In this document: one piece after another, positions 39,713 to 63,835 of the stretch
Numbering within the stretch: the first letter of the stretch is position 1
Layout: each line of letters opens with the position of its first letter
Assembly: GCA_000004985.1 (NCBI GenBank)
Contig: GG738869.1
Reading direction: 5' to 3' (one strand)
Source: Naegleria gruberi
Lineage: Eukaryota
Length of the DNA stretch: 64,000 bases
Notes under the pieces: model-generated
The model's database searches: none
The model's input: only the letters and a program-made list of their open reading frames with translations
Told to the model about the DNA's origin: nothing
Program-made: the position numbers and the translations under genes

Positions 39713-42700
39713 ATGGCGAAACGATCGTTCACTGATTTGCTAATTGTTACCTTGACTTCCGATGATCATTTCGAAGATATCACCATACCAGAGCACGATT
39801 GTGATTTATTGGCATTAAAACATTTTCAAAAAGTTGCAGCAGAACGTATCGAAAGAAATGAACAAATTTATTCTCATGTTTCCCATCTAAAATCAAGAAA
39901 TCACTCAAATAATTATGAAAAAATTACTAAAAATCCATTTCCGGACAATGATTGTAAATTAGCTTTTTTCAAGGTTTTAAAGTATGATGGCTTGTTGTTG
40001 CAGTTTGCATCGAATGAATTGAGAAATGATCGTGATGTTGTTTTGAGAGCTGTTAAAGAAAATGCAGGTTCTATCGAGGTGGTGAGTGAGGAATTGAGAA
40101 GTGATAGGGAATTTGTGGAGAAGGTTGTTATGATTGCTAAAGATAGAACGAGTTTGTCCACAAAAAGTTTTTTCAAATTTCTTGACAAGTTTCATGATGA
40201 TGAGTTGATTGTTAGAAAGGTGGTGGAGAAACATGTAAATTCTCTCGAGTTTGTATCACCAAGATTGAGAAATGATAGGTAGGTTGTTTAAATATCATTA
40301 CCAAAAGCAAATTCATACACAGAGAGATTGTTTGGAATGCTGTTAAAAGAAATGGATCATCTCTTCAATTCGTTCCAGAACATTTGAAAGATAGAGAATT
40401 GGTTATGCTTGCTGTGAAAACTGATTCCCAGGCACTTCTATTTGCACCAATAGAGTTTTTGAAAGATAAAGAAATTATTTCAAGAGCTGCTAAATTATCA
40501 GGACTTGCTATTAAATATGCCCACACAGAACTTAAAAACGACAGAGAGTTTGCTTTAGAGATGGTAAAGTTGAGAGCACTTGGTTATAATTATCTTTCGG
40601 AAGATCTAAGAGGAGATCGGTAAGTTGTTTGTGAAACTGTTGCAACAGTAATGAACGGAAAATTAGGGAAATTGCATTGGCAGCTATGAAGTCAATGCCA
40701 ACTTGTCTAAGAATGGCACCTAATCACATCAAAGATGATTTTGAAATTGTTTCCATTGCGGTTACGAAAAATTTATCAGCTCTTGTGTTTTCCTCACAGA
40801 GATTCAAAGATGATACAGACTTTATCTATAACTGTGCTTCAACTGCAAGTCAAATTATTTATTTTCTGAATAATCATGAATCTCTATTAGTAACTAATCG
40901 AGATTTCTGTTTACGGCTCATAGAAAAGAGTTGTGGATATGATTGTTTTAGAAATGCTCGAGATTTTGTGAAATTGGATAAGGAACTATGTCTGAAATTC
41001 ATACAAATACATCCAGATTGTTTGGAAGATGTTAAATGTGAAGATATTCTAAATGACAAACAACTCTTAATGGATTTATTGCCACACAGTGAAAAAATTC
41101 TTCTTCAAATTCCAAATGAGCTTTGTAATGATAGAGAACTCATGATGTGGGCATCGAAAATTCATGACAATGCTCTAAAATTTGCCTCTGAAGAGCTTTG
41201 TGCTGATAGAGAGTTTGTAAATGAGGCATTGCTTTGTGATTTTGGTAATTTTGAGTATTTATCAGAGGAGTTGAGAAGTGATAGAGAGTTAGTGGAAAAT
41301 ATTGTAAAAATTGATGGTTTCAATGTTCAATTTGTACCAGAATTATTTAGAAACAATAGAGAACTAATCATTACTTCAATCAGAAATGCATTCTCAGATA
41401 TTTCTCCATACTTAGGATATCAGTTGAAGGAAGATAGAGATATTATTTTGGAATCTGTGAAAAGATCTGGCATTATAGAAAATCTTCTACACGAGTTTAG
41501 AGATGATAGAGAAATTGTAATGATGGGAATTCAACAATTTGGACCAGAATTTCGATATGCTTCCAAGTTTTTACGTAGCGATAGAGAATTGGCATTAATT
41601 GCCATTAGAAACTTGTGCACTTTAGAGCATATTCCCAAGGAAATATTAGATAGAAAACTTGCCTATGAAGCTTGTAAACGTTCGGCCTTTAATTTAAAAT
41701 TTGCCTCTGAGTATAGAGAGGATGAACTAATTGTTCTTTCTGCATTAAGCAATGAAAATGGGGGTTTATATACCAAATATGTCGGTGAGCGGTTGAAGAA
41801 TGACAGAGATTTTATATTGAAAGCTTCCAAACTTCAACCTAGTATTATTGCTCATATTTCGACTGAGCTTCTCCAAGATAGAGAAATAATCATAAATGCA
41901 CTTTCGCATGATGGAAATGTACTTGCTCATCTACCAGAGGAATTCAAGAGTTGTAGAGAATATGTGGAAATAGCTGCTAACTCAAACCCACATTCACTTA
42001 AATACGCATCAGAAGATTTGAAGCAGGATCCAGAGTTGTTATATAAGGCAATTGCAACAGGGATTGCCAACTCTTTAGTTTCTGAACAATTTTTGGAGGA
42101 TGCTGATGAGTCAACTATACAAAAATGTATTGAAAATGGAGTTTCACTTCGTAGTTTTCCTAAGTCTTTAACCAGTAATAGAAACTTAGTTATTAAGGCT
42201 GTAAATATTAATATGGAGAATCTTAGATATGCATCCAAGGATCTAATTAACAAGGAACTGATTATGGAAATTTCACCAAAAAATTTTGATATATTACTAC
42301 TTCCAATCAAATGGAGAAGTGACAAAGATATTGCTTTAAAGGCTTTGGAAATGAATGGAAAATCAATAATATATATTTCTGATGAGTTGAAAAATGAATT
42401 TAAGCACAACAAGGAAATCCTATTGAAAGCAATGAAAACAGATAGCATTCCATTCCTTTATGCGAGCGATGATTTACAAAACGATCGTGATTTTATTTTG
42501 GAATCTGTTTCAACAAATGGCTTGGTATTGAGATATGTTGCATCCCATTACAAAGAAGATAGGGAAGTAGTTTTAAAGGCAGTTAAAAATCATGGAAATT
42601 CAATTCGTTACGGAGCCAGACATTTCATGAATGATAGAGAAATCATGTGGAATGCAGTTCAAAACTTGGGAGCCAAAATTCTTCCGTGCAATCCATTAAT

Positions 42701-43019
42701 TTATGGCTCCTTTGAAATACGAAGTGACCGTGAGCTAGTTCTAGAAGCCGTTCGCCATGATTATCACTCCCTTGAATATGTTGTCATTGAATTATTAAGC
42801 GACGAAGAATTCATGACGAAATGCGTGGAAATTAATATTAATTCTCTAATTTATGCTCACTACCAATTAAGATACAATGTAGATTTTCTGAAACGATTGA
42901 ACAAGACAGATATGATCAGAGAAGACACTGATTTACACAACAAAATAGATATTGAAGGACTATTAGGATACAATCCAAAACTTAAAGATTTGAATATTAT
43001 TGATAGAGCTGAAATTTAA
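39713..43019 (+). CDS. DUF4116-repeat protein (about 1071 aa), 3 exons: 39713..40278, 40323..40619, 40667..43019
   Basis: It has more than 25 tandem repeats of the unit ...A(L/I)xYAS.ELR.DRE(F/I)VL.AV..NG.... Two introns (40279..40322, GTAGGT...CACAG, 44 nt; and 40620..40666, GTAAGT...AATTAG, 47 nt) both split the Arg codon of LR(N/G)D-R-EI in phase 2. Splicing restores continuous repeats across ORFs 39713, 40384 and 40677. Confidence 0.7.
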
Positions 43020-43134: not shown

Positions 43135-45111
43135 TTACTCTCTACTCTGTATCATGTTATTTACAATACGTTTGTAATTTGCTCTTGATAGAGAGACCAA
43201 ATCATCCAAACCAAATGAATAACTTGAATTATTATCGAGACAATATTCCATCATGCTAATGAGTTCCAAAATCTGTTCTCTAAACATTGGTATACTCACA
43301 ACAGTATCCTTCTTTGTTGTTGCATGTAAGGAGAATCTGGAAACGAGTGTAGAACGACATATTATAGTAATAGGAATTGTGGTTGACTTGATGAGTTTGT
43401 TTAGCTCTTTTAACACTCTCTTACAATCCATTGATGTTGGAAATAAGAACATGGCCCAATATAACTGAAAGTGTATACTCTCCTTTAACAATCTAGATTT
43501 GGATGTCAGATCTTGAATTGCTTGTTTTGTAACTTGGTGATAATCTAATGTATTGTCTTTCAGTACATTCATCCATCCAATTAACAACTTAGTGGCAAAC
43601 AGAATTGGAGAATTCCCAAAATTGAGCATTAAGAAATTCAAATCATTTCGAGCCAAATGAAATTCTGCTTGTTGGGCTAGAAAGATTGATCTGTTTAGAT
43701 AGGCATTGAATCTATCTCTAGCATGAGTTGCATTTGTACATGCCATATCAAAATATTGTCTAGCCCTTACATAATTTCCATTCAGTTCCATAACAAAAGC
43801 AACATTGACCATTGCACTAATGTACCTAGAATCTATTCGAATGGCATTTAGAGAATTATCCTTAGACTGTTTCCTCAGATTTAGAATTTCAGTTGCTTGC
43901 TCCAAATTAGACCTTGCCTCAAGTTGACGAGAAAGAGCCAACTGTACAAGTGCCTTATTATTGAGAGCTCGTGTATCATTGGGATTTAAACTATCTAATA
44001 CATACTGAAATTTAGAAGCAGCCTCATGAAAGTTTTCTGAAAACAGTAAATAATAGCCATGAAATTTGTATGAAAAGCTGCGAACATCATCCCAAATTCC
44101 TTTGACGATTGATTGACACATACGAACCAAGGAGAATTCAACTTGGTTATATCGAATTTGACCAACCTTTGTAACTTGAGAAAATTTGTTTTCACTCTTT
44201 GCTAATTGTCCAACAAAGTCAACAAGGTCTGGATTCGGATTGTTGGTGGGGTTTGTTTCAGCTCGATCTTGGAACATGTAGAGCCGAATAATAATTTCTT
44301 CCATAGTTTCGTATTGAGGAATTCTAGTTTCTTGACTTTGAAAACAACTCCATAACAATGGTACAAGATTACTCTCCTCCAATCTGTGTCTAGCTTCTTC
44401 AGAATCATTTTCGTATAGAATTGCCGCAATTTCATCATTCTCCAAGGTTGAAAATGTTTGATTTAGATTTCCTGTAATTAATTGAAATAAAATTGACCCC
44501 AAGGCAAAGACATCATAGGTTTCACTACTTCCTTCACTTGGATAGTTGTTTCCACAACTGTTTGAAAACTCATCATCATCATCAAGAACATCTCCAACAT
44601 GTTGCATCTTTTCAAAATCTGCAAGGACTATTCTAATCACATCGTTTTCATAGCTTTCAACAAGAATATTCTTCAATGTTATATCTCTGTGCACAATGTT
44701 GTTATGATTCCTCAATTCGACAAGAGCACTCGCTAGTTGATAACCTATTTGATATATGATTGGAAATGGAAGTAATCTCATTTGTTTAGTTGTCTCATCA
44801 AACAACATTGAATACAGATCACACTTATAGAATGGCATTTCAATTACCAGTGCATTGTTTTCAAAGTAAGATCGGTAAATTTTCACAATGTTTGGATGGT
44901 CCACCTTTTCTATCATTTCTGCAATTTCCTTTTGTTTTTGTAAATGTTCATCAAGTTTCTCACATTTCATATTATTTTCTTCCCTCTCAATTCTATAAAC
45001 CTTATTTGTGGATATTTCACGAATGACGTGGATTAGAATAGGGGAACGACGACTAGTGTGCAGTAATTGATAGTTGACTTTGTCTTTTTTCCATTTTTCA
45101 GTAATAGACAT
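43135..45111 (-). CDS. Protein-kinase-like domain (probably a degenerate pseudokinase) fused to C-terminal TPR-like repeats
   Basis: 658-aa ORF with a verified ATG. The catalytic loop HRDITLKNILV is present, but there is no GxGxxG loop and DFG is DFE. The C-terminal half has TPR-like helical repeats. Confidence 0.5.
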   Translation of the reverse strand: MSITEKWKKDKVNYQLLHTSRRSPILIHVIREISTNKVYRIEREENNMKCEKLDEHLQKQKEIAEMIEKVDHPNIVKIYRSYFENNALVIEMPFYKCDLYSMLFDETTKQMRLLPFPIIYQIGYQLASALVELRNHNNIVHRDITLKNILVESYENDVIRIVLADFEKMQHVGDVLDDDDEFSNSCGNNYPSEGSSETYDVFALGSILFQLITGNLNQTFSTLENDEIAAILYENDSEEARHRLEESNLVPLLWSCFQSQETRIPQYETMEEIIIRLYMFQDRAETNPTNNPNPDLVDFVGQLAKSENKFSQVTKVGQIRYNQVEFSLVRMCQSIVKGIWDDVRSFSYKFHGYYLLFSENFHEAASKFQYVLDSLNPNDTRALNNKALVQLALSRQLEARSNLEQATEILNLRKQSKDNSLNAIRIDSRYISAMVNVAFVMELNGNYVRARQYFDMACTNATHARDRFNAYLNRSIFLAQQAEFHLARNDLNFLMLNFGNSPILFATKLLIGWMNVLKDNTLDYHQVTKQAIQDLTSKSRLLKESIHFQLYWAMFLFPTSMDCKRVLKELNKLIKSTTIPITIICRSTLVSRFSLHATTKKDTVVSIPMFREQILELISMMEYCLDNNSSYSFGLDDLVSLSRANYKRIVNNMIQSRE

Positions 45112-45236
45112 GATGATTTTTGTTTAGTGTGTAAGTTTTGCATGATGGTTGTTTACAAGGAAAAGACCAGATCAAAATCCAAAATGGAATTATTCCAAAA
45201 TAATAATTTTAAAATTTCATATCCAAGTTAACTCGT

Positions 45237-46739
45237 TTATAATACAATTTGTACAAATTCATTGATCAAGTGACTGTCATGCATTTTGTATCTTGTCATG
45301 GTATCATTTCCAATTCTTTCCAATTCAACTAAGCAATCATCTAAATCCTTCTTTGTGTGAGCACTAGAAATGCAGAATCTTACTCTGGCCAAAGCAGTTG
45401 GACAAGCAGGAGCACCAACAATAACAATGGCAATTCCTCTCTCGAGGCAAATTCTAGAAAATGCAATCAATTTTGTCAAGTGATAAATCATCATGACGAT
45501 AACAGGTGAATCTCTATCTGAAATAATTTCAAATCCAAGTTTTTTCAAAGAATCCCCAAAGTAATTGGTATTGAAACTCAATTGGTCTAATTTTTCCTTT
45601 CCAATACTTGTGTTATCTTCACCCATAATGCAAGTGAGAGCTGACAATGCCTGTTGGGCACAAGGAATTGATATTGAAGTACCATAAATCAATCCAAAGC
45701 AAGATTTTTTCAAATAATCAATGACCTCAGCATCTCCAGAAATGTATCCTCCCACAGAATTAAAACTCTTTGTAAAGGTTCCCATCAAGATGTCAATATC
45801 CTTTGGGTCAACATTTTGCTGTTCACAAACACCTCTTCCAGTTTTACCCAAAGCTCCACACGAATGAGCCTCATCCACATAGAGATGGAACTTGTATTGC
45901 TTCTTCAATTCAACTACTCTTTTCAAATTGACAATTTCACCTTCCATACTGTAAATTCCCTCAACAATGACAATAATCTTCTTCCATGGTTTTCTATTTC
46001 CTGGTCCTGGTTGACCATCAATAATGTTCTTTCTCAATAATTTCTCCAAATGATCCATATCATTGTGTCTGAAACGAAGAACTGTTGGAGTACCTTCTGA
46101 AGCTCTAGTTCCATTCACAATACTTGAATGGTTCAAAGAATCGGACAAGATGAGACAATCTCTAGTTGGAGCCAATAATGGAATAACTGTAGAATTGGTT
46201 GCAAATCCCATGGACACAACCATTGCACTTTCCTTTCCAATAAATCTAGCAACTCTCTTTTCCAATTCTCTATGAATTGGAGTATAACCATATTCAGAAT
46301 ATGCAGAACCAGAAGCAACACCATATTTATCAAAACTCTCCAAAACCTGATCAACTACATGTGAAGGACTTTCAGAAAATCCTAGATAATTATAACTAGC
46401 CATATTTAAACAACTTTTCAATTTACCATTCGTGTCAATATTTGCAACTCTTTCAGTGTTTGGATTTCTCATCATGACTTGAATATGTGAAGATGGTCTG
46501 CTTGCAATCGGTCTGTGGAAACAATCAGAACATTTCCCATAGATTCTTCTCACAAAGAAATCATCATCTACGAGGGGTTTCTTACTAGCTTCATCAGGAA
46601 ACCTTTCATAATTTGTTTTATCGATCGGACCAATGAAGAGAATATGAAACAAATCGCTGATCTTTCCCAATATAAATACAATTAGTAGATTTGTATGGGT
46701 TAGAAATAAAGTCAACGGGGAAGGATCACAATGCGTCAT
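45237..46739 (-). CDS. Serine palmitoyltransferase, LCB2-type subunit (class-II aminotransferase)
   Basis: It has the LCB2 hallmark FFVRRIYGKCSDCFHRPI, the PLP lysine region GTFTKSFNSVGGY and AOS-family similarity throughout. The ATG at 46739 was verified. Directly upstream (sense) is TTACTAACAG, a branch-site plus AG, so an extra 5' exon is possible. Confidence 0.8.
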   Translation of the reverse strand: MTHCDPSPLTLFLTHTNLLIVFILGKISDLFHILFIGPIDKTNYERFPDEASKKPLVDDDFFVRRIYGKCSDCFHRPIASRPSSHIQVMMRNPNTERVANIDTNGKLKSCLNMASYNYLGFSESPSHVVDQVLESFDKYGVASGSAYSEYGYTPIHRELEKRVARFIGKESAMVVSMGFATNSTVIPLLAPTRDCLILSDSLNHSSIVNGTRASEGTPTVLRFRHNDMDHLEKLLRKNIIDGQPGPGNRKPWKKIIVIVEGIYSMEGEIVNLKRVVELKKQYKFHLYVDEAHSCGALGKTGRGVCEQQNVDPKDIDILMGTFTKSFNSVGGYISGDAEVIDYLKKSCFGLIYGTSISIPCAQQALSALTCIMGEDNTSIGKEKLDQLSFNTNYFGDSLKKLGFEIISDRDSPVIVMMIYHLTKLIAFSRICLERGIAIVIVGAPACPTALARVRFCISSAHTKKDLDDCLVELERIGNDTMTRYKMHDSHLINEFVQIVL

Positions 46740-47170
46740 TGAAAAACTGTACTGTTAGTAATATATATTTGTTATTATTGTTAAAAACTGTTGAAGAATA
46801 TTTTGAGTGGTTGTTTTTGTGGCTGTTTTGTGTGTGGCTATGAGGAAATGCACGGTGAGTGTGTTGACCTTTTTTTTGAGTAATACTTGAATAAGATTCG
46901 ATGAGCGAATTGAAATATTTTTGAGAATCGAATCTTTCTCATTATCCTTCAAGAAGAAGAGGAGTTGCTGCTTGTCGCCGTTTGTTCGTTTATTGCTGTT
47001 GGTGTTTGGGCAATTGGAAGATAGAACGAACTTCGGGTGTACACCATGTCGTTGAATGGTTGTGTTTTCCTTTTAGATGGAATTTGATCATGCAATTTCC
47101 TGAACACTCCCTGACCAAAGGTAAGTTTTAGAAGAGTTGTTACGTTTGATTTTTTTGAAATGGATGTGAA

Positions 47171-47251
47171 GCAGGGGTTCCCGAGTGGTCAAAGGGGGTA
47201 GACTCAAGTTCTACTGCGCAAGCTTCGTGGGTTCAAATCCCACCTTCTGCA
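47171..47251 (+). tRNA. tRNA-Leu (anticodon CAA), intronless, with a long variable arm
   Basis: GCAGGGGTTCCCGAGTGGTCAAAGGGGGTAGACTCAAGTTCTACTGCGCAAGCTTCGTGGGTTCAAATCCCACCTTCTGCA folds as a cloverleaf: a 7-bp acceptor stem with 2 GU pairs, anticodon stem GTAGA/TCTAC with loop CTCAAGT, a long variable arm, and T-arm GTGGG-TTCAAAT-CCCAC. Immediately followed by GCTTTTTT. Confidence 0.8.
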
Positions 47252-47253
47252 GC

Positions 47254-47259
47254 TTTTTT
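47254..47259 (+). terminator. Pol III oligo-T terminator downstream of tRNA-Leu
   Basis: A T6 run starts 3 nt after the tRNA 3' end. Confidence 0.5.
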
Positions 47260-47438
47260 ACAAAATCAACTTATAAGATGTATAAACTTTTTTTATATCT
47301 GCATGTTGTATTTGATGTCTACCATCATATCTGAAAGAATCTATTTTTTATTTACTATTTTAGTTCGAAGAATAGCCTCAGATCAAAAACGTTGATATTT
47401 CACTTGAAAAAATCTCATCACTTTACAATTTTAAAAAA

Positions 47439-49445
47439 ATGTCTCAACAACCTTCAAGCTGCCTTTTATTGTCTCTACCCGACGAATGTCTATCACTGGT
47501 TTTTTCCAACCTCTCCATACAAGAACTATTCTTCCGAGCCAGATCTACCTGTAGAAATTTTCATGAAATTATTGTGGGTATCGCTTCACCATTTCAACAA
47601 AAGGAAAACAAGAATTGCTTGATAAGAAATCAAAAGTTGAAAATTTTGTGTTTAAATAATAATCCAATCAGATTAAAATCACTGTGGGAGTGTATTAGAA
47701 AGGGTTATTTTGAAGAATCAGTAACTAAATTCAGTATTACTGCTAGAAGAACTGAATTGTTGGAAACTTTGCTTGACAAGAATGATTTCTTTGTAAAATA
47801 CTTTTCAAATTTGGAATGTTTAAAATTTGGATCAAAGAATTTGTGCAGTGAACATATTTCTGAATTGTTTAATCCTGATAATTCCAAACATTTAAGAAAG
47901 TTAACAATATTGAAGTTGGCAAATAATAATTTGGATATCAAAACAGCAAGGAGCATAGCCAAGTGTGAAAACTTAACTAATTTGACATCACTAGATTTGA
48001 GCACTAATGTTATGGAAGGTGACTGTATAGAATTACTAACGAGTCCATATTTAGAAAAGTTAACAAATCTCAATTTGAGTGGTAATTATATTACAACAAT
48101 ATTATGGAAAGAAAAATTCAAATTCAAAAACTTGGAAAAGATATCAATTGAAAATCCATTTGAGTTCGTTTTCAATAATCAATCTGAAACATATTTATTT
48201 AGCAAGCTCACATATCTAGATGCTTCTGACTCAATTGAGGAGGAAAAAAGATTCTCTGCTATGAAAAAGTTTGATTCCATACCAACAATCACATATTTGA
48301 ATTTAAATTATGTAGAATTAACACAAGAATCCATACTATCCCTTATTGCAGATAGTAGATGCCTTTCCAAGTTGGAAAATTTAGAATTAATCGGTTGCTC
48401 ACTTACTGGAACTGGATTTGCAATCTTGACTAGAAGCAGATATTTATCAAATTTGAAAAATCTGGTTGCTGAAAGTAATGACATTGATTTTGAAGGTTTT
48501 GTACACTTTGGAACAGATTCGTTTACTTTGAAGAATCTAATTACTCTAGATTTAATTTCAAATGACTTTAGCGTGAAATCTTATGAATATTTATTAAGAG
48601 AACCCTCTTTAACAAAATTGGAGAAACTTTATTGTGATAATGTTGATGAGGTTGAGGCAAAATACATTGCAGAACACCAAGAAAATATTACAGGAATAAC
48701 TGATTTGGTATTTACTGGCTATTCTGAAATGGAAGATGACAGTATGAAATATTTGGCCATGTTAAAATTACTCAAACTCAAGAAATTGAAATGCACTGGC
48801 ACAGGAGGCACCTTTTCAGGATTGATTTACTTTTTAGAAAATTGCACTTGTGAAAATTTGGAAACATTAGAATTTGGTAGGGTAAAATTTACAAATATTG
48901 ACGAGCAAATGAAGGCCATCTCATCACTACTCTCCAATAAGCACTTCTCCAAGTTGGAAACCCTAACTTTGGATGGACTTGCTGATGAACCTTTGAGAAT
49001 GTTATTGGATAATATGGACGACGATAAGTTATTGAGCAAACTTTCAACTTTATCAATTTCAGAAATTAATGACGATGCATTCAGAGTTCTAACAAGTCAT
49101 CCAAATAGTTCCAAATTGAAAATGCTTGCTCTTATGGAAGGAGAGCTTTCAGATGAGTCAATTGAACATTTTGTTAATAGTCCACACTTTCATGAGCTTA
49201 ATTATTTGGATTTGATTGGAACTGAAATATCACGTGAATCGAGTAAGCGTATTGCTCACAGTACCAACATTCCAAATCTCGAATATTTATTTGGTTCTTT
49301 TATTTTGGCTGATTTCGAACAGGAAACTAATTTACCGAAACTTTCTCATCTCTATTTAACAGAAAATGGTTTGGAAACCCCAAAAGATGATGATGATGAT
49401 GGATTGTATGAAGCAACAGAAGTGGAAGATCAACTTTCAAATTAA
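47439..49445 (+). CDS. F-box / leucine-rich-repeat (RNI-like) protein
   Basis: 668-aa ORF with a verified ATG after an A-run. The N-terminal F-box is LSLPDECLSLVFSNLSIQELFFRARSTCRNF, followed by many L.L..N.I-type LRRs. Confidence 0.6.
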   Translation: MSQQPSSCLLLSLPDECLSLVFSNLSIQELFFRARSTCRNFHEIIVGIASPFQQKENKNCLIRNQKLKILCLNNNPIRLKSLWECIRKGYFEESVTKFSITARRTELLETLLDKNDFFVKYFSNLECLKFGSKNLCSEHISELFNPDNSKHLRKLTILKLANNNLDIKTARSIAKCENLTNLTSLDLSTNVMEGDCIELLTSPYLEKLTNLNLSGNYITTILWKEKFKFKNLEKISIENPFEFVFNNQSETYLFSKLTYLDASDSIEEEKRFSAMKKFDSIPTITYLNLNYVELTQESILSLIADSRCLSKLENLELIGCSLTGTGFAILTRSRYLSNLKNLVAESNDIDFEGFVHFGTDSFTLKNLITLDLISNDFSVKSYEYLLREPSLTKLEKLYCDNVDEVEAKYIAEHQENITGITDLVFTGYSEMEDDSMKYLAMLKLLKLKKLKCTGTGGTFSGLIYFLENCTCENLETLEFGRVKFTNIDEQMKAISSLLSNKHFSKLETLTLDGLADEPLRMLLDNMDDDKLLSKLSTLSISEINDDAFRVLTSHPNSSKLKMLALMEGELSDESIEHFVNSPHFHELNYLDLIGTEISRESSKRIAHSTNIPNLEYLFGSFILADFEQETNLPKLSHLYLTENGLETPKDDDDDGLYEATEVEDQLSN

Positions 49446-49516
49446 ATAAATTTCTGTTCGAATCAAAACTAATTCTAATTTGGTAATTCTCATAGTTTTA
49501 CAAAGTCGAAAAAAAA

Positions 49517-52035
49517 ATGTCCTACTTACTATCAGTGCTTCTGCCAGATGTCATCCTTTCAATCGTGCTCATTCTTTTCTTTATTGTCGTTTCTAGACAA
49601 TTGACACTCTTTAATAATTACAAACAAAGAATATTGAGAGAGAAGGTTAAAACTTCAAGAGAATACAATCGGAAGAAAATTATGGCAGATACAGAAGAGG
49701 GAAATGGTCAGGAGGAACGTAATTCGAATACAGACGAAACTCAGACAAATCAAGAAGAAGTCGGGACGAATTGCTTGTGGATCCACAAATTGTTTCTACC
49801 ATGTCTTATTGGGAGAAATCAATGAGAGAGGGTGTTGCGTCATCATTTGTGTTTTTCATGGAATTAATTAGAAATTTATATGTTTCAATAATTAGTTTAG
49901 TTTCGTATGGATATAGAAGAAGGAATTTATACAAAATTTATAGAAAGTTCGGAAGAGAAAAGGCTATTTACTTGAGTTTCCAGCTTCATTTATTGTGGAT
50001 TAGTCTATTATGCTCAATTATTGTCTGTGCTGTCTTGTTACCTTTACATTTGACAGGTAGAGAAATTGACAACTCGGAATATGCATATAATATCGTTGCT
50101 CTTACCTCTGCTCTCAGAGCAGCAACTTCACCAGTCAAGATGTTTGCTCACGTAGCCATTCTAATTGTGTTTATAATTATTACATTAGTTTTCATGGTTT
50201 CTTTCAATAGAAATAGGTTTAGTTCTTCACTTCTTTTGGTAGGTGAAGATTCTAATAGCACAGAACAGGATTCTACCCTTTCCAATGACGAAACTGTTAT
50301 CATTTCTCCATTTACAATAGTTTTAGATGGAATTCCAAAAGAATCATCTCAGAAAAGTGTCGAACAATTCATTGAAGAAAATTTTAATGGTGGATTGAGT
50401 GCGAATGATGAAAATAGTAAGATTGTAAAGATATTTCATGTGCCAAATCTTGTGGATCGGTTAAATCTCAAAGAATTGGAAGAACATTTGGAAAGAGAAT
50501 TGGAACATTTCATGCATTTAAAAGGAAAATCAAATTATGATGTTGCCAAACGTCACATAGTTCATGAAATGAGACCATTGTACTCGGATGATTTGAGATT
50601 CAAATTGTGTGGATGTACTACATATAGTACCAATTTGAAAACTATGACTACTGATGAGGCAGTAGAATATTTAAGATTGGAATATTCAGATTGTAAAAGA
50701 ATGGTGGAACAATGGGATGGAGAATATACTTCAATGTTTCTTACAGATGAAAGACAATCACAAGATGAGGAATATTTATCTCAAATCAAACAAGTGAAAT
50801 CATCTGGAAAGTGCTTTATAGTTTTTAAAAAGGTTGAACATGTTGATGAAGCAATTGAAAAGAATCGAATAATGTTCAATGATTCTTCAGTTTCCTTGAT
50901 GAAACTATTAATTGAACCGCAAGATATCAATTGGCACTTTATTGGCGGTACCTCCAAATACTTTTCCTTGAGAAACTTTTGCATGATTAGTTTAATATTC
51001 TTTGTATTGTTGGTATTTTCTGGACCACCATCCATTTTACAATCACTTCAAGCATTGGGATCTCCTATTCTTAAAGCTGTCAAACTTGGTGACTTGTCTG
51101 ATTTACTATTTCACTACTGTCCTTCTCTGTTGATTTTCATTTTCAGCAAATTGTTTCCAATATTTTTCAAAAAGATTACTCAAACAGAGAAGCACCTTTC
51201 CAAATCATTTTACAGTAGGATATTATTAGTGAGATTGTTTACATTTTCCATTTTGAATATTCTCATTTTACCAGGATTGTGGATTATCTCAGCTTTCCTC
51301 TTTTTAGTTTTCGCAAATGATGGCAAACATTTGGATATCATGTTCTTGCCAAAAACAATTGAAACAATGATTTCTACATTGCTACAATTCATGGTTATGG
51401 AGAATGTTTACGAATTGGTCAGATTTGGCAAAACACTTTATTATATTTGGAAGACAACATTTAATTGTTACAGAAAAGCAAGAACTCCCACTCAAATTTT
51501 AAAACTAATTAAGGAAACTAAGGAATTCGATATGGAAGAGAATGTTTCAAACATGTTGGGTATATTATGTATGTCGATGGTCTATTCATTCTGTTGTCCA
51601 CTTGTAATGCCATTGGCATTCCTTTGCATCTTTATCAAGCACTGGTTTGATAGATGTGTTATTGAAGAGGAATTCACTCATCACTCCAATATCAATGAGA
51701 AGGATGACAAACTCGATTTTACCAGTAGTTTGAGATTATCCAAGCTATTGATCGTTCTTGTTCTTACAACATTGAGCATTGTTGGAATGATTGTAATTTT
51801 AGGATTTTCTTACTTGTTTTTTACTAGTCTAATGTATATTATACATTTGGGAGTTTGTGGAGCTTGCTTAGCTATTCTTCTATTAATTACCTTGGCGTTG
51901 ATTTTCAAACAAAACTCAAGTGTCAGATCAAATAAGAAAGATATTGCAGAACAGCAAGAACGAATGCTTGATCCAAATTCATTCTCACAACAAGTTCAAG
52001 ATATTCTCAATGTGGAAAATATTCTCAAGTTTTGA
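49517..52035 (+). CDS. OSCA/TMEM63/CSC1-family mechanosensitive cation channel (RSN1_7TM); the 5' exon structure is unresolved
   Basis: The main ORF 49771..52035 has the OSCA-type TM core (GREKAIYLSFQLHLLWISLL...PLHLTG, LVRLFTFSILNILILPGLWI). The upstream ORF 49517..49825 (verified ATG, TM0 helix LSVLLPDVILSIVLILFFIVV) is in another frame. The junction needs either a 26-nt GTAATT...TCAG intron (49719..49744) or a frameshift. Confidence 0.6.
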
Positions 52036-52082
52036 TTTTTGTTTGACAATCAACACTCAATTCTGTAACTCTTAAGGCAATC

Positions 52083-53189
52083 TCAATAAAAAATGGAAAT
52101 ATCAGAAAATGTTAAATTATTCAATTGACCTTTCAGATGTGTAAAGAATATTATTTCTTCTGAAGATTTAGTTTCAAAAAATGTTCTTTGATAAATAAAT
52201 CCATGAAAACGTCCAAAAACAATTGTTTCCTTTTCATTCTCAATTGCTATTTGAAGGGGTTCCTCTTTAAGCAGATGAAAATGTGTGGCAGATCTTACGG
52301 CAGTTGACATACTGGAGCAGCAGACATCACTGAATGATCCCTCAATTTTAATAGGTTGAAATTCTTTGACTATTCTTGGCGAAACTAATCCAGTACATTG
52401 CTTTGAATTGTTTAGTCCTGCACAATAAATTTTACCATCCTCTAATAGTAAAGCTAGATGAGAAAATCCACCAACCATCTTTTTAATTCCACAATTGATT
52501 GATAATTTCAATTCATTCAACTCTCCACTAACATTGCCAAATCCAATTCCATTCTTTCTAATAAATAGACGATTGTTTTCCAATAAGATGAATTGTGCAT
52601 TATTGGTGGAACAACATGCAAATTGTTTCACTCTATATTCCGGAAATGGAAAATGAATATTTTCAACCATTTCCTCTTTTTCATAAATAGTTCCATCAAT
52701 TGTCTGAACTAACCAACAAGTTGACATGATTCCACTTCCAACACAATTAAGTAATGAAGTGTGTGAGATGAAGAATTTGTGCATTTTCAATGTTTGAGTA
52801 TCAAATTCAAACAAAGATCCATCCATCATTTCGAATAAAATAAATCTTGAATTATTCGAAACAACTCTCTTCATAGATTGCCCTCTTTTTGAATTGCTCA
52901 ACTCAGACAGCAATGAACTAAACTTTTTTTTCTCTCCTTGAAATACGAAATATTCACTCTCACTCCCTTCGAACAGAAACATTGAATAGGAACCATCACT
53001 ATTCCCACCACAACAAATATACGAAACATGTATTGTTGCATTTTCTTGAATCTCGGAGGGTGAAAAATTATTTTCTTCAGCTTTAGGAAAATTTGAAGGT
53101 TTAATTTCCATCTTGTGCCAACGAGCAGGAAAATCCAAACCTAAATTCTTAAATTTGGTGTGAAAGATTTCACCATAAACTTTGAGCAT
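52083..53189 (-). CDS. RCC1-like repeat (beta-propeller) protein
   Basis: The ORF-track start at 53252 is GTG five codons after a TAG; the first ATG, after an A-run, is at 53189. The protein has RCC1-type repeat signatures (DGKIYCAGLNNSKQCTG, NRLFIRKNGIGFGN). Confidence 0.45.
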   Translation of the reverse strand: MLKVYGEIFHTKFKNLGLDFPARWHKMEIKPSNFPKAEENNFSPSEIQENATIHVSYICCGGNSDGSYSMFLFEGSESEYFVFQGEKKKFSSLLSELSNSKRGQSMKRVVSNNSRFILFEMMDGSLFEFDTQTLKMHKFFISHTSLLNCVGSGIMSTCWLVQTIDGTIYEKEEMVENIHFPFPEYRVKQFACCSTNNAQFILLENNRLFIRKNGIGFGNVSGELNELKLSINCGIKKMVGGFSHLALLLEDGKIYCAGLNNSKQCTGLVSPRIVKEFQPIKIEGSFSDVCCSSMSTAVRSATHFHLLKEEPLQIAIENEKETIVFGRFHGFIYQRTFFETKSSEEIIFFTHLKGQLNNLTFSDISIFY

Positions 53190-53495
53190 TTTTTTTGTAA
53201 ACTTTTTCTGAGAGAAACGATAGACTTTGAGAATGTGGAAAATTTTCTCCACTTTTATTGGATACTATTGCAAACTCTCAAATTACAGTAACTCCTCCAA
53301 ATGAATAATTTACTTTCCAATAATTATAGATTATTAGAATTGATAACAAGATGGAATTATAGAACTATAGCAGGTGAAACAAATTTCAAATCAACACATC
53401 CTTTGCCTCCCAACTACTGATTTTCAATATTGTAAATAAACTTTTAGAAACTTTTCTCAAATTAAATAATTTTAGTTTTTAGTAAACAAAAAAAA

Positions 53496-54431
53496 ATGTC
53501 TCGAGTTGTTGTGGAACTTGTTGATTTAAATGTCGTTGAAAATTCATCATCAGATCATATTATTTATTTAATTAATTTATTGAAGAGATCATTTACAAAA
53601 AAACAACATCAATTTTCGTTGAATTTTAACATGATTGGTCAATTTGATCAACTTTCTCCACAAGATCCTGTCTTTGATATTGCCATTTCCAAAAAGTATG
53701 ACACTATACTCATTCCACAGAAGGTTGGTATATCAATTTATAATAGACCAAGTAGTAGGGAAACTTTCCATCTCGAGCAATTATTCAAAGTAGAGAAACC
53801 CAATACTGAGCTTCGTTGTATGAAATTGGTTGATGAGCAAGGAGAGGAATTTATCTATGCAACAGATTACTCAAACGCTGTTGTTAAATTTAGTGTTTCG
53901 GATATTATGATACGAAAAGTTTTTTCAATTATTTGGCAATCTGAACCATTTTCTAATTTGTGGGGATTGGATGTTTTGAATGGAAAAGTTTATGCAGTTG
54001 ACAATATGACATCAGTTAAAATTTTGGATTGCAAAAGTGGTGCAACTATTTCAGAAAATGCTCCAAACGTAGCAGAAGGATACGGTATTCATTTCTTGTC
54101 AGAGAAACAAGCAGTTATAAGCAACTCAAAGAAAGTGGAAATATTCGAAAGGGACAAATTTGGTAATTGGAATTCCATCAAACAAACTCAATTTCCAATG
54201 GAAGCTGCCTATGCAATTTTCTGTGAAGAATCATCCGGATTAATCTATGTTTGTGAGGATTCTCAATTACATGGATTGAATATTCATGTGGTAAGACAGA
54301 ATGATTTGACATTGGTGAAATCATTTCCAATTCCTTCCTTGCATTTTGGTGTTATGGTGGACGATAAAAGTGGATTGCTATATGTGTGCCATTATGAAAG
54401 TTCGAAAATGAAGGTTAATGTTTATGAATAA
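53496..54431 (+). CDS. Hypothetical beta-propeller-like protein (311 aa)
   Basis: Verified ATG after an A-run. The protein shows repetitive beta-strand periodicity (KVYAVDN..., LIYVCED..., LLYVCHYE), similar in style to the gene at 61038. Confidence 0.4.
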   Translation: MSRVVVELVDLNVVENSSSDHIIYLINLLKRSFTKKQHQFSLNFNMIGQFDQLSPQDPVFDIAISKKYDTILIPQKVGISIYNRPSSRETFHLEQLFKVEKPNTELRCMKLVDEQGEEFIYATDYSNAVVKFSVSDIMIRKVFSIIWQSEPFSNLWGLDVLNGKVYAVDNMTSVKILDCKSGATISENAPNVAEGYGIHFLSEKQAVISNSKKVEIFERDKFGNWNSIKQTQFPMEAAYAIFCEESSGLIYVCEDSQLHGLNIHVVRQNDLTLVKSFPIPSLHFGVMVDDKSGLLYVCHYESSKMKVNVYE

Positions 54432-55046
54432 TTATTGAAATAAGTGGATTTTAATTGACATTCAAATATTTGAAATATGAATAATCACGTTTTAGATAAA
54501 AAAACAGTCAAGAGCTAGTTCTTCACTTTCTGATAAGCAAAAATCGTGACTAGTTACATTTCCGTAATGGTAGGTCCATATTTCACTGGAATACTTGTGA
54601 ATTTTATTCTTAACTTTACGAATACCGGTCAAATTGCTGAGTGGAACAGAAAATCCTTGATTGGTCTTAATGATCTAAGGAATAACGCATTGTCCAACTT
54701 TGCACTTCCTTTATCCCTCACCAGTTGAGACTCTGTATGCATTTGATATATCTAAATTCAATCATGAATGAAGAGAGGAAGAAATATCAATGATGGTTAA
54801 ATCAAGGTTGCCATCAGCACTAGGAAATTTACCAACTTGTGAAATTTCACATTTCTCTTAATGTAGGGATCTCGGCACTCCTCTAACTTTGCGCTTTTTT
54901 AAATTGTTGTCGCGATATTTCCATATAAGAAAAGAATGATAATTTCAGCCTTATTACAATTTGAATCTAGTACACGTTGCAGTACAACACTTCATTAAAT
55001 TAGAATCAATACCATTCACATTTAATTTAATAATTAAAATAAATAA

Positions 55047-56533
55047 TTATTGAGATTGTTTTACAGCTCTTACAGTTTGAGCTAATCTTTTCATCTCACT
55101 TAATTGATTAGAACATGATTTGATAATACTATTCTGTCTATCAAAAATTCCTCTCAAAGTCATATCACGAGCTGGTGGCAATGGTTGTGAATATTCGGTA
55201 ACAATTGTTGGTTGAGGCTCAAATGTATTGAAATGTTGAGAAAAGTAGGATGGTTCAGTGGTGATGGTTGGTTTATCATCCAATTCAATATCATTTGATT
55301 GTGGAATTGATTGTGACTCAAATGAAATTAAATCAACATTTGATTGGGCTTCACTTGGAGCTTGTGAAATGGCATCATCATTATCAATGACATCAAATTC
55401 TTCATCTTCAAAATTTACATCACCTTCCAATTTTCTCTTACTCAACATTAATTCATATTCACCCAAAAGTTTACTGTAAATTCCACCAATAACCATGGAA
55501 GGCAAAGCAACAATCACAATACCAGACAAGATGGTCATGATAGCAATAATTCTTCCCAAAACTAAGAGTTTGGTTCTTAATAAATGTTAAATTAATGAAT
55601 TAACATACCTGTAACTGGAGCCATGTCACCATAACCAACTGTAGCAATGGTAACAACGCTGTACCACATACAAATTAAAATATTTGAAAATGGTGAAGGT
55701 GTACCATCTGGTCTTAACCATTGTCCAGATTTGAGATCATATTTTCCACGTTCAGCATAATAAACAAGAGTACTACAAATAAGAGCACCCATAAATATTA
55801 AAACAGAGATTGATAAGAGCATATCCATAGATCTTCTCAATGAAACAATAAGCAATTGAAATTTAGCAGAATATCTTGTCAATTTGATAAGTTTTAAAAG
55901 TTTTAAAACTCTGAAAATTGTCAAAACTTGAAGATTGACATTTAACCAAGTACTGGCATCTGCCATATAAATTATTAAATCAAAGTAAAATGGAACGAAA
56001 CTAGCAATATCAATTAAATTGGCAGGAGCTTTAACAAAATGTCTAAAATCACCCCAAGTATTTACATAAGCAGCCATTCTTGCAAAATATTCAAGCATGA
56101 AACAAACTGATAAAAATCCAGTAATAAGCAGCCACATGATTTCGAATGGGAAAAAGAATGGAAAAGATCTCAAAATTAAACATAGGGTTTGAATAACAGT
56201 CATGAGTGACGTTATCACTGTAATGATCATGGCTACATATGATGATCTAGGATGTTCCAATAATAAATATAATTTTTGTTTCCATGTTCTTTCCTTATTA
56301 CTTTGTGGAATACTCTTGATAATATTAATAGTTCTTCTACTTCGGAATAGTCTTGAATTTTCAATTACTTCCAATGTTTTCTTTTTTTCCTTTTCCTCTA
56401 ACTTGAGTTTTGCTTTGATTTCTTTTAAAGTGGTTGGTGGTTGTTGTTCGATAGCTTCCTTTTCATGCTGTGATGATGAGGAAGGCGATGCGGGTGTTGC
56501 TGTTGTTGTAGGTGTTGGCGTTGTTGTACTCAT
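55047..56533 (-). CDS. Voltage-gated K+ channel (Kv/Shaker-like 6TM), 2 exons: 55609..56533 and 55047..55561
   Basis: It has the selectivity filter TVGYGD and an S4 helix with basic residues at every third position (FRVLKLLKLIKLTRYSAKF). A 47-nt GTATGT...TCTTAG intron (55562..55608) lies directly after the pore, phase 1, restoring GDMAPVTG|V|LGRIIAIMTILSGIVIVALP (S6). The ATG at 56533 was verified. Confidence 0.75.
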
Positions 56534-61037: not shown

Positions 61038-62228
61038 TTATTTAAAAACAAGAACAGTTTCATAGGAAATATCTGGAATTCTATTGGTAAGAAGTAATTG
61101 TCCAGTAGTTGAGTTGATTGTGAGGTCCATGTATGTTCCTTGGAATTTGTGTTGATTTTTGGCCTTTCCAAGATTTGGAATAGTGTTACCATTAAACATT
61201 GTTTCTGATCCATCTGGATGTACAATAACAATTGCATTACTTTCACAAGTGTTCATATTTCTATAACCTGCATAGATACAATTACTATTCTTGTCAAACT
61301 TCAATGATTCAATAGCACCAAGCTTTGGCAATTGTTGAGTACCAACAACTTTTCCATTTGGCTTCAAGATGGTCAACTCACTTGTGTATGAATTGGAAAG
61401 GCAAATATTACCATCCTTATTCAAACAGATGCAACTAACTTTCTGAGCTACACAATAGCCACTCATATCTTGACCAACATTGGCAAGAACTTTACCATTT
61501 GAACTATCAACTACACATACAGAAGGTTGTTGAATTCCAGAATAGAGAGAATCTCTTGCACAGTAAATTTTACCATTCTCATCAATGGTGCAATCTTTCA
61601 TATCTGAATCCAATGTTACTGCCCATTTTCTTTGTCTTCCATCGATGGATATCTTGTGAAGCTTGGTTTTCTGAAGAACAATAATACCATCACCTTTTGG
61701 ATCGACTTCCAAAGCATCGATTGCAAAGTCCAATTCTTTCAATTCGAAATTGTAAAGGAAATCCAAGGTTGTGGCATTGAACACAAAAATTCTAATAATG
61801 TGTCTATTCTCAGCTACAAAGATGAGGTTATTTTGTCTGTCGTAGGCAATTTTCTGTGGTTGTTGCATGGTAAGATTGAAATCTTCACGATCACCCAAAC
61901 ATTCAACAAAATCAAAATCTCCAGAGAAGTCAATTGGGTCTTTTGAGAGATGTTCAGTAGTTTTAACAAACTTTCTCTTGGTCATGGTTGAAGAGCTACT
62001 TGAGGTTGAAGTGCTTGATTGACTGGTCTCGTAGTCATCTTTATAAGATGGTTTTTCATCTCTTCCACGATTGTTACTTCTGACATTTGGAAGCAAATTC
62101 TTGATACGGCTTGCAGAACGAAGAATATTCTCAACATTGTTTAGAATTGAAGACATTTTGTTTTTTAGTGTTTTGATTATCATAGTTTGACCATTTTCTC
62201 TTTTTAAAATGTTTGATCTTAATGTCAT
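61038..62228 (-). CDS. NHL/TolB-like beta-propeller repeat protein
   Basis: 396-aa ORF with a verified ATG at 62228. An alternative A-run ATG at 62156 (MSSILNN) may be the real start. There is an S/T-rich linker followed by six repetitive blades (IYCARDS..., ICLSNSY..., IYAGYRN...). Confidence 0.5.
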   Translation of the reverse strand: MTLRSNILKRENGQTMIIKTLKNKMSSILNNVENILRSASRIKNLLPNVRSNNRGRDEKPSYKDDYETSQSSTSTSSSSSTMTKRKFVKTTEHLSKDPIDFSGDFDFVECLGDREDFNLTMQQPQKIAYDRQNNLIFVAENRHIIRIFVFNATTLDFLYNFELKELDFAIDALEVDPKGDGIIVLQKTKLHKISIDGRQRKWAVTLDSDMKDCTIDENGKIYCARDSLYSGIQQPSVCVVDSSNGKVLANVGQDMSGYCVAQKVSCICLNKDGNICLSNSYTSELTILKPNGKVVGTQQLPKLGAIESLKFDKNSNCIYAGYRNMNTCESNAIVIVHPDGSETMFNGNTIPNLGKAKNQHKFQGTYMDLTINSTTGQLLLTNRIPDISYETVLVFK

Positions 62229-62419: not shown

Positions 62420-63835
62420 TTACACAAATGAAATATCAGAAAACTTGTTGTTCAAGCTGGAATACAACTTGTTGATGAATTTTTCATCTTTTCTCTTCAA
62501 ATTATTAGAAATGAAAGGTTGGGAGTTATTGGAAACAATTCTTTGCATGCACGATTGTACTTCTTCTTCATTGGTCGTATTACACACGTGATAATCAAAC
62601 TTGGAGTCTTTACAATATTGTTGGAATAGGTTTTCATACTCGTTAATGGTTGAATTGAGTACACTTCTTTCCAAATTAAGATTGGACATGGATTTCAATT
62701 CTTCTTTCATAGAATCACAAACTTGTCTTTGATAACGAGCTTCTACTGAGAGTTTTTCTTGGAGAATATCTGGTTTTGAAAAGATTACAACCTTTCTGCT
62801 ATTCTTCAATTGTTTCTTGGTCAATAATTCTTTAAAGGTCTTTAAGCTTTCGTCCATTCTATTGGTTTTGGAATCTTCTATGGATTGCTGATTGAATTCA
62901 GAGAGGGAAACAAAGAGTAACAAGACATTGGTTCCTTCCAAATCGAGTGAATTCCATCTTCTTCTTTCCATCTTCTTTCCTCCAGCTGTAACCAAATTCA
63001 ATTCATGACTAGTGGAAAATCTTCTAATGGTTTCTCTTTGTGTCGAATTCGTGCTATTATATAATTGATATTTACATTTTTGAAGGCAGAGTTTACCATT
63101 CTTGAATACTTGATTCATATTTTCTGTGAAATGCTTTGCATCCTTATTCTTTTCATAGTAAGATTTCAGGCAAGTTGACCAAATTCTTTCAAAATCTGTG
63201 ATAATTATTTGAATTTCATCATCTTTCGGGGAGCTAACATCTTCTGTTGATTCCTCCCCACCAAAGAGAATCTTATTTGTCATCTCTGAACATTCTGGCC
63301 ATCTCTCATGTCCATCTTGTCTGTAACTCTTTGCTATCTGACTCATATGTCTACACAAACACTCAAAGTGTTCAGAAGTCGACACAGCCTTTGAATTGCT
63401 CTGATATTGCTCTGTCAATGTATTTACAAACGTACTCTTTCCACTATCTGAACCCCCCAAACACAACACATTCATTCTCTTGTTATTCATCTGCTGTTCA
63501 GTAATAGCACTGGCAGCAGCAGTAGTAGCATCAACACTCTCAATATTTACACAGTTCAAATTATCTTCATCATAACCATCACGTTCCTTTTTCTTGTTAA
63601 CATCGGATTCAACATTCACTTCATTAAGAATGCAACAATCACAATCAGAATCCTTATCTTCTTTAGCGGTGATTGCTGTTGAGAGGGACTGAGAAACACA
63701 CTCTATTAAACTCATTTGTTTTGTTTTATATATTGAATTGTATCTCGAGTTCCTAAAGTATTTAAATGAATTGCAGAATTGGTCTCTTGCTTTTTTGTTG
63801 TCCACCTTATTTGGAATTTTTAAAAAGATGCGCAT
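62420..63835 (-). CDS. Divergent heterotrimeric G-protein alpha-subunit-like protein
   Basis: G1 is LCLGGSDSGKST. The G3 region is LVTAGGKKMERRRW, where canonical DVGGQRSERKKW is expected. The G4 region is VVIFSKPDIL, where NKKD is expected. G5 is VCNTTN. The ATG at 63835 was verified. There is a 115-aa N-terminal extension with no MGxxxS acylation motif. Confidence 0.7.
   Translation of the reverse strand: MRIFLKIPNKVDNKKARDQFCNSFKYFRNSRYNSIYKTKQMSLIECVSQSLSTAITAKEDKDSDCDCCILNEVNVESDVNKKKERDGYDEDNLNCVNIESVDATTAAASAITEQQMNNKRMNVLCLGGSDSGKSTFVNTLTEQYQSNSKAVSTSEHFECLCRHMSQIAKSYRQDGHERWPECSEMTNKILFGGEESTEDVSSPKDDEIQIIITDFERIWSTCLKSYYEKNKDAKHFTENMNQVFKNGKLCLQKCKYQLYNSTNSTQRETIRRFSTSHELNLVTAGGKKMERRRWNSLDLEGTNVLLLFVSLSEFNQQSIEDSKTNRMDESLKTFKELLTKKQLKNSRKVVIFSKPDILQEKLSVEARYQRQVCDSMKEELKSMSNLNLERSVLNSTINEYENLFQQYCKDSKFDYHVCNTTNEEEVQSCMQRIVSNNSQPFISNNLKRKDEKFINKLYSSLNNKFSDISFV

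Follow-up and report, generated by a model that had tools for sequence, protein, structure and literature searches.

A divergent G-alpha-like protein of Naegleria gruberi with substituted GTPase-critical positions and retained nucleotide-binding residues

Introduction

Naegleria gruberi encodes 44 G-alpha subunits, some of them with deviant catalytic motifs (PMC8584482). Here we describe one gene, NAEGRDRAFT_49275, which lies at 62420..63715 on the minus strand of a 64,000-nucleotide stretch of the N. gruberi contig GG738869.1 (assembly GCA_000004985.1; the whole stretch is called the window below), and whose product is a G-alpha-like protein in which positions required for GTP hydrolysis are substituted and residues that hold the nucleotide are kept. 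The review that counts the N. gruberi subunits cites Anantharaman et al. 2011. Deviant G-alpha motifs in Naegleria are thus already recorded, and NAEGRDRAFT_49275 is a further example.

The catalytic pair of G-alpha is formed by Gln204 and Arg178, substitution of the P-loop glycine (G42V) makes G-alpha-i1 GTPase-deficient, and changes of the G183S type produce G-alphas that are insensitive to regulators of G protein signalling (RGS). In another GTPase family, Rnd1-3 and RhoH carry substitutions at the positions equivalent to Gly12 and Gln61, retain nucleotide, are constitutively GTP-bound and are controlled by expression or modification. For G-alpha itself, substitution of the G3 glutamine results in GTPase-dead, constitutively active subunits (PMC8584482). 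A natural substitution of the P-loop glycine has been described in N. fowleri, with slow GTP hydrolysis and lost sensitivity to RGS proteins acting as GTPase-activating proteins (GAPs) (Bosch et al. 2022, PMC9283941). When the P-loop triplet of this Nf G-alpha1, TAQ (with Ala at the P-loop Gly), was put into Nf G-alpha2, hydrolysis was impaired and RGS GAP action abolished; the biochemically tested Nf G-alphas responded to nucleotide or AMF (PMC9283941). Farther away, the plant proteins XLG1-3 signal independently of the normal GTPase cycle (PMC8584482).

Results

NAEGRDRAFT_49275 is annotated but uncharacterised and has an intact open reading frame (ORF). It consists of a complete single-exon coding sequence for 431 amino acids, with its stop codon at 62420..62422, in an AT-rich window (about 33% GC) that belongs to a host scaffold of 747,259 bp. 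By protein search, the product was identified at 100% identity as the N. gruberi 'predicted protein' XP_002677043.1 (UniProt D2VG73, 431 aa; P0001 in our set), and, as this protein maps gap-free by tblastn to 63715..62423 on the minus strand, the gene contains no intron. The mechanical ORF comprises 471 uninterrupted codons (62420..63835, minus strand), whereas in the public gene model translation begins with an internal methionine (MSLIECV) at 63715 and not at 63835, and therefore the 40 in-frame upstream codons (63716..63835, minus strand) are probably a non-coding 5' leader.

The protein matched the Pfam G-alpha profile (PF00503) with 145.3 bits, over a cut-off of 48.8 (E=3e-42), along profile positions 9-330 of 333, and all its significant PDB sequence matches were G-alphas, the best being Entamoeba histolytica G-alpha1 (4fid). 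An AlphaFold2 model was built from a 96-sequence alignment (predicted template modelling score, pTM, 0.76), and a Foldseek search of the PDB with this model listed 50 matches, all 50 of them G-alphas, with target-normalised template modelling scores of about 0.7. In this model the protein keeps the two-domain G-alpha fold, with a Ras-like domain and a helical domain. The latter is an all-helical insert, about 110 residues long, that separates G1 from switch I (approximately residues 106-218; 63062..63400, minus strand, from the model and Foldseek), with predicted helices at 113-133, 144-151, 165-188, 191-203 and 211-218. A reading of this DNA made earlier from the letters alone (the sequence-only reading) had recognised the G-alpha signature in the P-loop, helical insert, switch regions and G5, and the Pfam match, the model and the alignments described below agree with it.

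Residues are numbered along the 431-aa protein, which was aligned with G-alpha-i1 and 4fid by means of phmmer and MAFFT. In these alignment columns the G1 motif, or P-loop, reads GGSDSGKST (G87..T95; 63431..63457, minus strand) where the consensus is G-x-G-[ED]-S-G-K-S-T. Lys93 and the Mg-binding Ser94 are kept, and Ser89 stands at the second glycine, equivalent to G42 of G-alpha-i1 and G12 of Ras, which is conserved in 95% of canonical G-alphas. Switch I, YNSTNSTQ (residues 219-226; 63038..63061, minus strand; phmmer to 4fid and MAFFT columns), lies opposite the canonical R-x-x-T-T-G(-I), and in the gap-free register the arginine finger, Arg178, corresponds to Ser221, the Mg ligand Thr181 to Ser224 and the RGS-contact Gly183 to Gln226. 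No arginine was found within three residues of the arginine-finger position in either of two alignment registers.

In switch II, which contains G3 (TAGGKKMERRRW, T243..W254; 62954..62989, minus strand), the alignment sets LVTAGGKKMERRRW of the N. gruberi protein opposite DVGGQRSERKKW of G-alpha-i1. TAGGK thereby falls on the canonical DVGGQ, with the changes D200T, V201A and Q204K, and the gamma-phosphate Gly246 (Gly203) and Trp254 (Trp211) are kept. The replacement of DVGGQ by TAGGK, in which the catalytic Gln and the Asp associated with Mg are lost, had been proposed from the letters and is confirmed by this placement; an alternative DVGGQ or NKxD was looked for elsewhere in the protein and none is present. 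Sequencing error as the source of these motif changes was also considered, as the sequence-only reading had advised, and was rejected, because several base substitutions would be needed and TAGGK recurs independently. Specifically, the codon of Thr243 is ACA whereas those of Asp are GAY, and, as all three positions differ, Thr243 is not the product of a single-base error.

The G4 motif is SKPD (S313-K-P-D316; 62768..62779, minus strand) where NKxD is canonical, as had been read from the letters: the alignments to G-alpha-i1 and 4fid set IFSKPDIL opposite LFLNKKDLF, giving N269S with Lys314 and Asp316 kept. This change had led to the suggestion of an altered nucleotide specificity, according to which the replacement of Asn by Ser at G4 would make a nucleotide other than GTP the preferred one. 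Asn269 is indeed, like Asp200, 100% conserved in 63 canonical G-alphas. However, Asp316, which determines specificity, and Lys314, which stacks on the base, are both intact and near-invariant among the closest relatives of the protein, and Rho-family GTPases use TKxD at this site. Moreover, T, V or S occupies the Asn269 position throughout the clade described below, and the literature accepts (N/T)KxD as a consensus for G4 (PMC8584482). The suggestion was therefore not upheld, and a changed base preference appears exceedingly unlikely.

At G5, HVCNTTN (H376..N382; 62570..62590, minus strand) takes the place of the canonical H-FTCAT-D, with YHVCNTTNE opposite THFTCATDT in the alignment. In the alpha2 region the protein has WNSLDLEG where the canonical segment is WIHCFEG, with several G-beta-contact residues altered.

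Among the 63 canonical G-alphas, 41 positions show a conservation of at least 85%; the protein keeps 24 of these, and the losses include G42, R178, D200, Q204 and N269. Judging from the alignments, all three classic GTPase-killing positions are substituted, namely the P-loop glycine, the arginine finger and the catalytic glutamine, and the Asp that is a water-mediated Mg ligand is replaced by Thr243. On the same alignments, the residues that hold the guanine nucleotide are kept (Lys93, Ser94, Ser224, Gly246, Lys314 and Asp316). Shared with canonical G-alphas are also the P-loop GKST, the switch II helix ER[KR][KR]W, LSE[YF][DN]Q, NRM-ES and the Lys and Asp of G4. By sequence, the protein is a putative pseudoGTPase, a class understood as a GTPase fold that lacks one or more catalytic residues and is impaired in hydrolysis, binding or both.

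With Asp200 gone and further active-site residues changed, any useful affinity for Mg-GTP could have been abolished, leaving a nucleotide-free pseudo-GTPase scaffold that would act through protein-protein contacts, like XLG2. The complete conservation of Asp200 among canonical subunits speaks for this possibility, as do the altered G-beta-contact residues of alpha2 and the precedent of the XLGs, which have degenerate G motifs, bind GTP-gamma-S very poorly and function without GTP (PMC8584482). However, the direct ligands of phosphate, Mg and base (GKS, the switch I Ser, Gly246, Lys314 and Asp316) are not only kept but are among the best conserved positions of the clade, and such retention would be hard to explain were nucleotide binding dispensable. 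A nucleotide-free protein is thus considered unlikely, though an alternative to be taken seriously.

Both termini depart from the canonical arrangement. Residues 1-59 (63539..63715, minus strand) are acidic and predicted to be disordered (predicted local distance difference test, pLDDT, <50), with a Cys cluster, DSDCDCC; no Pfam domain was found in residues 1-69, nor was a MGxxxS myristoylation motif found at the N-terminus. The long N-terminal extension without a lipid motif that had been noticed earlier is hence real for about 60 disordered residues, whereas the first 40 codons then counted in it belong to the probable leader. A short alpha-N helix of about 16 residues follows (residues 62-77; 63485..63532, minus strand; pLDDT 75-83). 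At the other end, alpha5 comprises only 12 residues (383-394) in the model and is succeeded by a C-terminal extension of 37 residues (395-431; alpha5 and extension together at 62423..62569, minus strand), which is modelled with low confidence. Therefore, compared to canonical G-alphas, neither the N-terminal lipid motif and long G-beta-binding alpha-N nor the long, protein-terminal alpha5 that couples to receptors is present, alpha5 having only about half its normal length, with some 37 further residues forming the tail behind it. The model of the paralogue P0002 likewise has a short alpha5 and then a tail.

The relatives of the protein were collected with HMMER, a full scan covering 1.84 billion representative proteins having returned 1899 G-alpha relatives. 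No close orthologue was found: besides P0001 itself, nothing exceeded 34% identity in the full HMMER scan, a word-indexed search and a Joint Genome Institute (JGI) metagenome DNA scan (about 15 billion proteins). Against canonical G-alphas, 20 sequences form one clade, with a neighbour-joining (NJ) bootstrap of 88%, and its named members are all heteroloboseans, of which eight belong to N. gruberi, two to N. lovaniensis and one to Willaertia magna. The other sequences come from environmental assemblies; no N. fowleri protein was present among the close relatives looked up. The clade is marked by [T/V/S]KPD at G4, [YF]H[IV][IVC]N at G5, a shortened alpha5 and a C-terminal extension FISPCL...LxD[IV]x[IFL]. 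The protein studied here fits this signature with SKPD, YHVCN, FISNN and FSDISF, the last two within its extension. Many clade members begin with MGxKxS, which the NAEGRDRAFT_49275 protein does not.

Within the clade, most members have lost Arg178 (S, K, H or Y instead), and position 204 is nearly free (K, R, S, T, V, M, D or Y), with Gln in one of the 20 members. Kept are G203, the Lys and Asp of G4 and a Ser or Thr at positions 47 and 181, and K314, D316 and H376 are nearly invariant. The combination of conserved binding positions with free catalytic ones suggests that selection has acted on the binding of nucleotide and the sensing of its gamma-phosphate, but has been relaxed as regards catalysis.

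Some further features of the clade were observed. Its C-terminal extension (62423..62533, minus strand, in this gene; also seen in P0002, P0008 and P0011) consists of FISPCL, about 20 residues and L..L.D[IV].[IFL] near the end, and matched no Pfam domain in the clade (0 of 20 members); by eye, the terminal motif shows a tentative likeness to the opening strand of a BTB domain. The P0002 model places the FISPC segment confidently (pLDDT 82-85), but not the remainder of the tail. Another member, P0059 (NAEGRDRAFT_67917, 559 aa), is encoded on the same scaffold outside the window and has a long Asn-rich insert in its helical domain. Separately, the representative search returned P0013 (556 aa), a G-alpha match with three tandem switch I-switch II segments (RSRARTTGI...MFDVGGQKSERKKW), for which a genuine internal triplication and an artefact of assembly are both conceivable.

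The three changes D200T, V201A and Q204K occur together only in the NAEGRDRAFT_49275 protein and in two environmental proteins, P0012 (L001 338..1564, ENA ERZ929261) and P0080 (L002, ENA ERZ4903137). Both carry a GNTSSGKT P-loop and a Lys at the arginine-finger position and, as they share TAGGK while being 54-56% identical to each other, the motif has been maintained across real divergence. Neither is a reciprocal best match of the N. gruberi protein, and NJ support for the trio is 5%, so that on the sequences available TAGGK could have arisen either once or twice. No further TAGGK proteins were found in a metagenome scan with P0012 or in a profile search from the three TAGGK sequences. The real start of P0012 is probably an internal MGGKLS downstream of the called start, which fits the myristoylation consensus.

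The recurrence as a unit of T-A-x-x-K for D-V-x-x-Q, in proteins that are not the closest relatives, hints at a coherent configuration, and raises the question of a rewired but still catalytic site, in which Lys247 would supply the lost charge of the arginine finger, Thr243 would take part in a modified metal site and hydrolysis would proceed in a non-canonical way. The Lys that P0012 and P0080 have at the arginine-finger position would be in keeping with such a scheme. However, position 204 is so variable in the clade that it looks like a case of relaxed constraint, the change of the P-loop Gly to Ser is itself expected to hinder catalysis, and, to our knowledge, no G-alpha uses rewired catalysis of this Lys type. 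A rewired site is accordingly regarded as quite improbable.

A broader proposal extends to the whole clade, which would represent a functionally distinct family, derived from G-alpha and known to date from heteroloboseans alone, operating outside the cycle of G protein-coupled receptors (GPCRs), G-beta-gamma and RGS proteins. TAGGK would then be a redesign of the site for metal and gamma-phosphate that recurred under selection, rather than a product of decay. It rests on the truncated alpha5 with its new C-terminal module, the mostly lost arginine finger and the free Gln position, and we hold it as doubtful. If it were true, TAGGK could provide, for example, a Mg-independent or permanently GTP-bound switch. 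Neither the TKPD/YHIVN/FISPCL clade nor its TAGGK variant was found described in the searchable literature, although an earlier description may exist.

Regarding the genomic surroundings, tblastn across the 64-kb window revealed no second G-alpha locus, and the scanned neighbours had no obvious link to G-protein signalling. That the gene had been duplicated in tandem or had a signalling partner linked to it within the window was hence rejected, as there is a single G-alpha locus and the scanned neighbours are unrelated. At a distance of 190 bp downstream lies a 396-aa ORF for an NHL-repeat protein (61038..62228, minus strand) with weak beta-propeller-like matches and no evident link to the G-alpha gene. 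Farther away, a 780-aa ORF (40677..43019, plus strand) encodes a protein with 13 tandem repeats of DUF4116, a domain of unknown function (E=1e-132). In the region 43135..56533, several genes relate to signalling or membranes and encode a kinase+TPR protein (43135..45111, minus strand), an F-box+LRR protein (47439..49445, plus strand), an RSN1_7TM / OSCA-like channel (49771..52035, plus strand), an RCC1-repeat protein (52083..53252, minus strand) and an Ion_trans channel fragment (55592..56533, minus strand). A class I/II aminotransferase is also encoded there (45237..46739, minus strand).

Discussion

The interpretation that we favour, and consider reasonably likely although far from assured, is that NAEGRDRAFT_49275 encodes an intact, divergent G-alpha-like protein, from a subfamily with only heteroloboseans among its named members, and that this protein binds GTP but splits it very slowly, if at all. 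Defective hydrolysis had already been predicted from the letters, and this prediction is strengthened by two losses in the alignments that had passed unnoticed, those of the arginine finger and of G42, both to Ser. According to this interpretation, GTP would be bound by the protein and its hydrolysis would be extremely slow or nil. RGS GAPs would have no effect on it, given that Gly183 is replaced by Gln and the P-loop glycine is lost. Participation in a classical GPCR and G-beta-gamma cycle would be unlikely as well, because of the short alpha5 with its extra tail, the altered alpha2 contacts and the missing N-terminal lipid motif. The protein could act instead as a long-lived 'on' switch or as a scaffold, with its output set by expression, nucleotide loading or modification, in the manner of plant XLGs or of small GTPases of the Rnd/RhoH type.

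Compared with the canonical human G-alpha-i1 and with 4fid, the protein combines G42S, the absence of an arginine finger, TAGGK, SKPD, VCNT instead of TCAT and a disordered N-terminus of 60 residues. With Nf G-alpha1, from the same genus, it shares a natural substitution of the P-loop glycine, the triplet being TAQ in the latter, and with the N. fowleri G-alphas in general the conserved Trp of switch II; unlike them, it has additionally lost the arginine finger, the catalytic Gln and Asp200. Like plant XLG1-3, it is derived from G-alpha and has degenerate nucleotide motifs and an N-terminal extension. In contrast, the XLGs are plant-specific, have a long Cys-rich N-terminal domain with nuclear localisation and nuclear export signals (NLS/NES) and have lost whole G motifs, whereas the N. 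gruberi protein has a short, disordered extension and keeps its binding residues. Its nearest relatives in sequence are heterolobosean, and it is of independent origin, in a clade with only heteroloboseans among its named members. The resemblance to Rnd1-3 and RhoH lies in the substituted Gly12- and Gln61-equivalent positions, although these proteins belong to a different GTPase family and the G-alpha protein has also lost its cis arginine finger.

Several points weigh against the proposed GTP-bound, hydrolysis-deficient protein. The expectations about G-beta-gamma, RGS proteins and receptors depend on few residues and on a C-terminal model of low confidence, and a second alignment moves the register of switch I by two residues, which adds uncertainty to the assignments there. 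D200T, the loss of a near-universal Asp of Walker-B type, could weaken the binding of Mg-GTP so far that the protein is left nucleotide-free, as described for XLG2 (PMC8584482), and it bears in the same way on the constitutively GTP-locked state that had been put forward as a possibility from the letters. Furthermore, no orthologue was found against which purifying selection on the gene (the dN/dS ratio of nonsynonymous to synonymous substitution rates) could be gauged. Look-ups of the exact protein, in both its 431-aa and 471-aa forms, found no assembly carrying either form in the contig index, and the gene identifiers are mentioned in no paper of the searchable literature.

The last of these points touch on whether the gene is a non-functional relic, that is, a decaying or unexpressed paralogue within the 44-member family. 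Its motifs are the most degenerate of its clade, no orthologue of at least 35% identity exists among the roughly 15 billion proteins searched, and neither the contig look-ups nor the identifier search of the literature provided evidence of expression. Even so, the reading frame, whose disruption would have pointed to a pseudogene, is intact over 431 codons in DNA of 33% GC, where stops are expected at about 7% per random codon (an estimate from the GC content), and it has stayed open despite a divergence of about 70% from every relative (the nearest being at most 34% identical). The core is also confidently foldable in the AlphaFold2 model, with functional residues selectively retained. A relic is thus judged very unlikely, and the preferred interpretation remains that of an intact protein that would bind GTP and hardly hydrolyse it.

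The practical value of this gene is modest, as deviant motifs in Naegleria are on record. It represents a natural experiment in which three positions known for oncogenic, GTPase-killing changes and a Walker-B-like Asp are substituted while the binding residues survive. N. fowleri, a sister species, is a lethal pathogen, and work is under way to explore its G-protein pathways for drug targets. The G-alpha repertoire of Naegleria is the largest known, and sorting its true switches from copies that are hydrolysis-dead or uncoupled from receptors helps to interpret this expansion.

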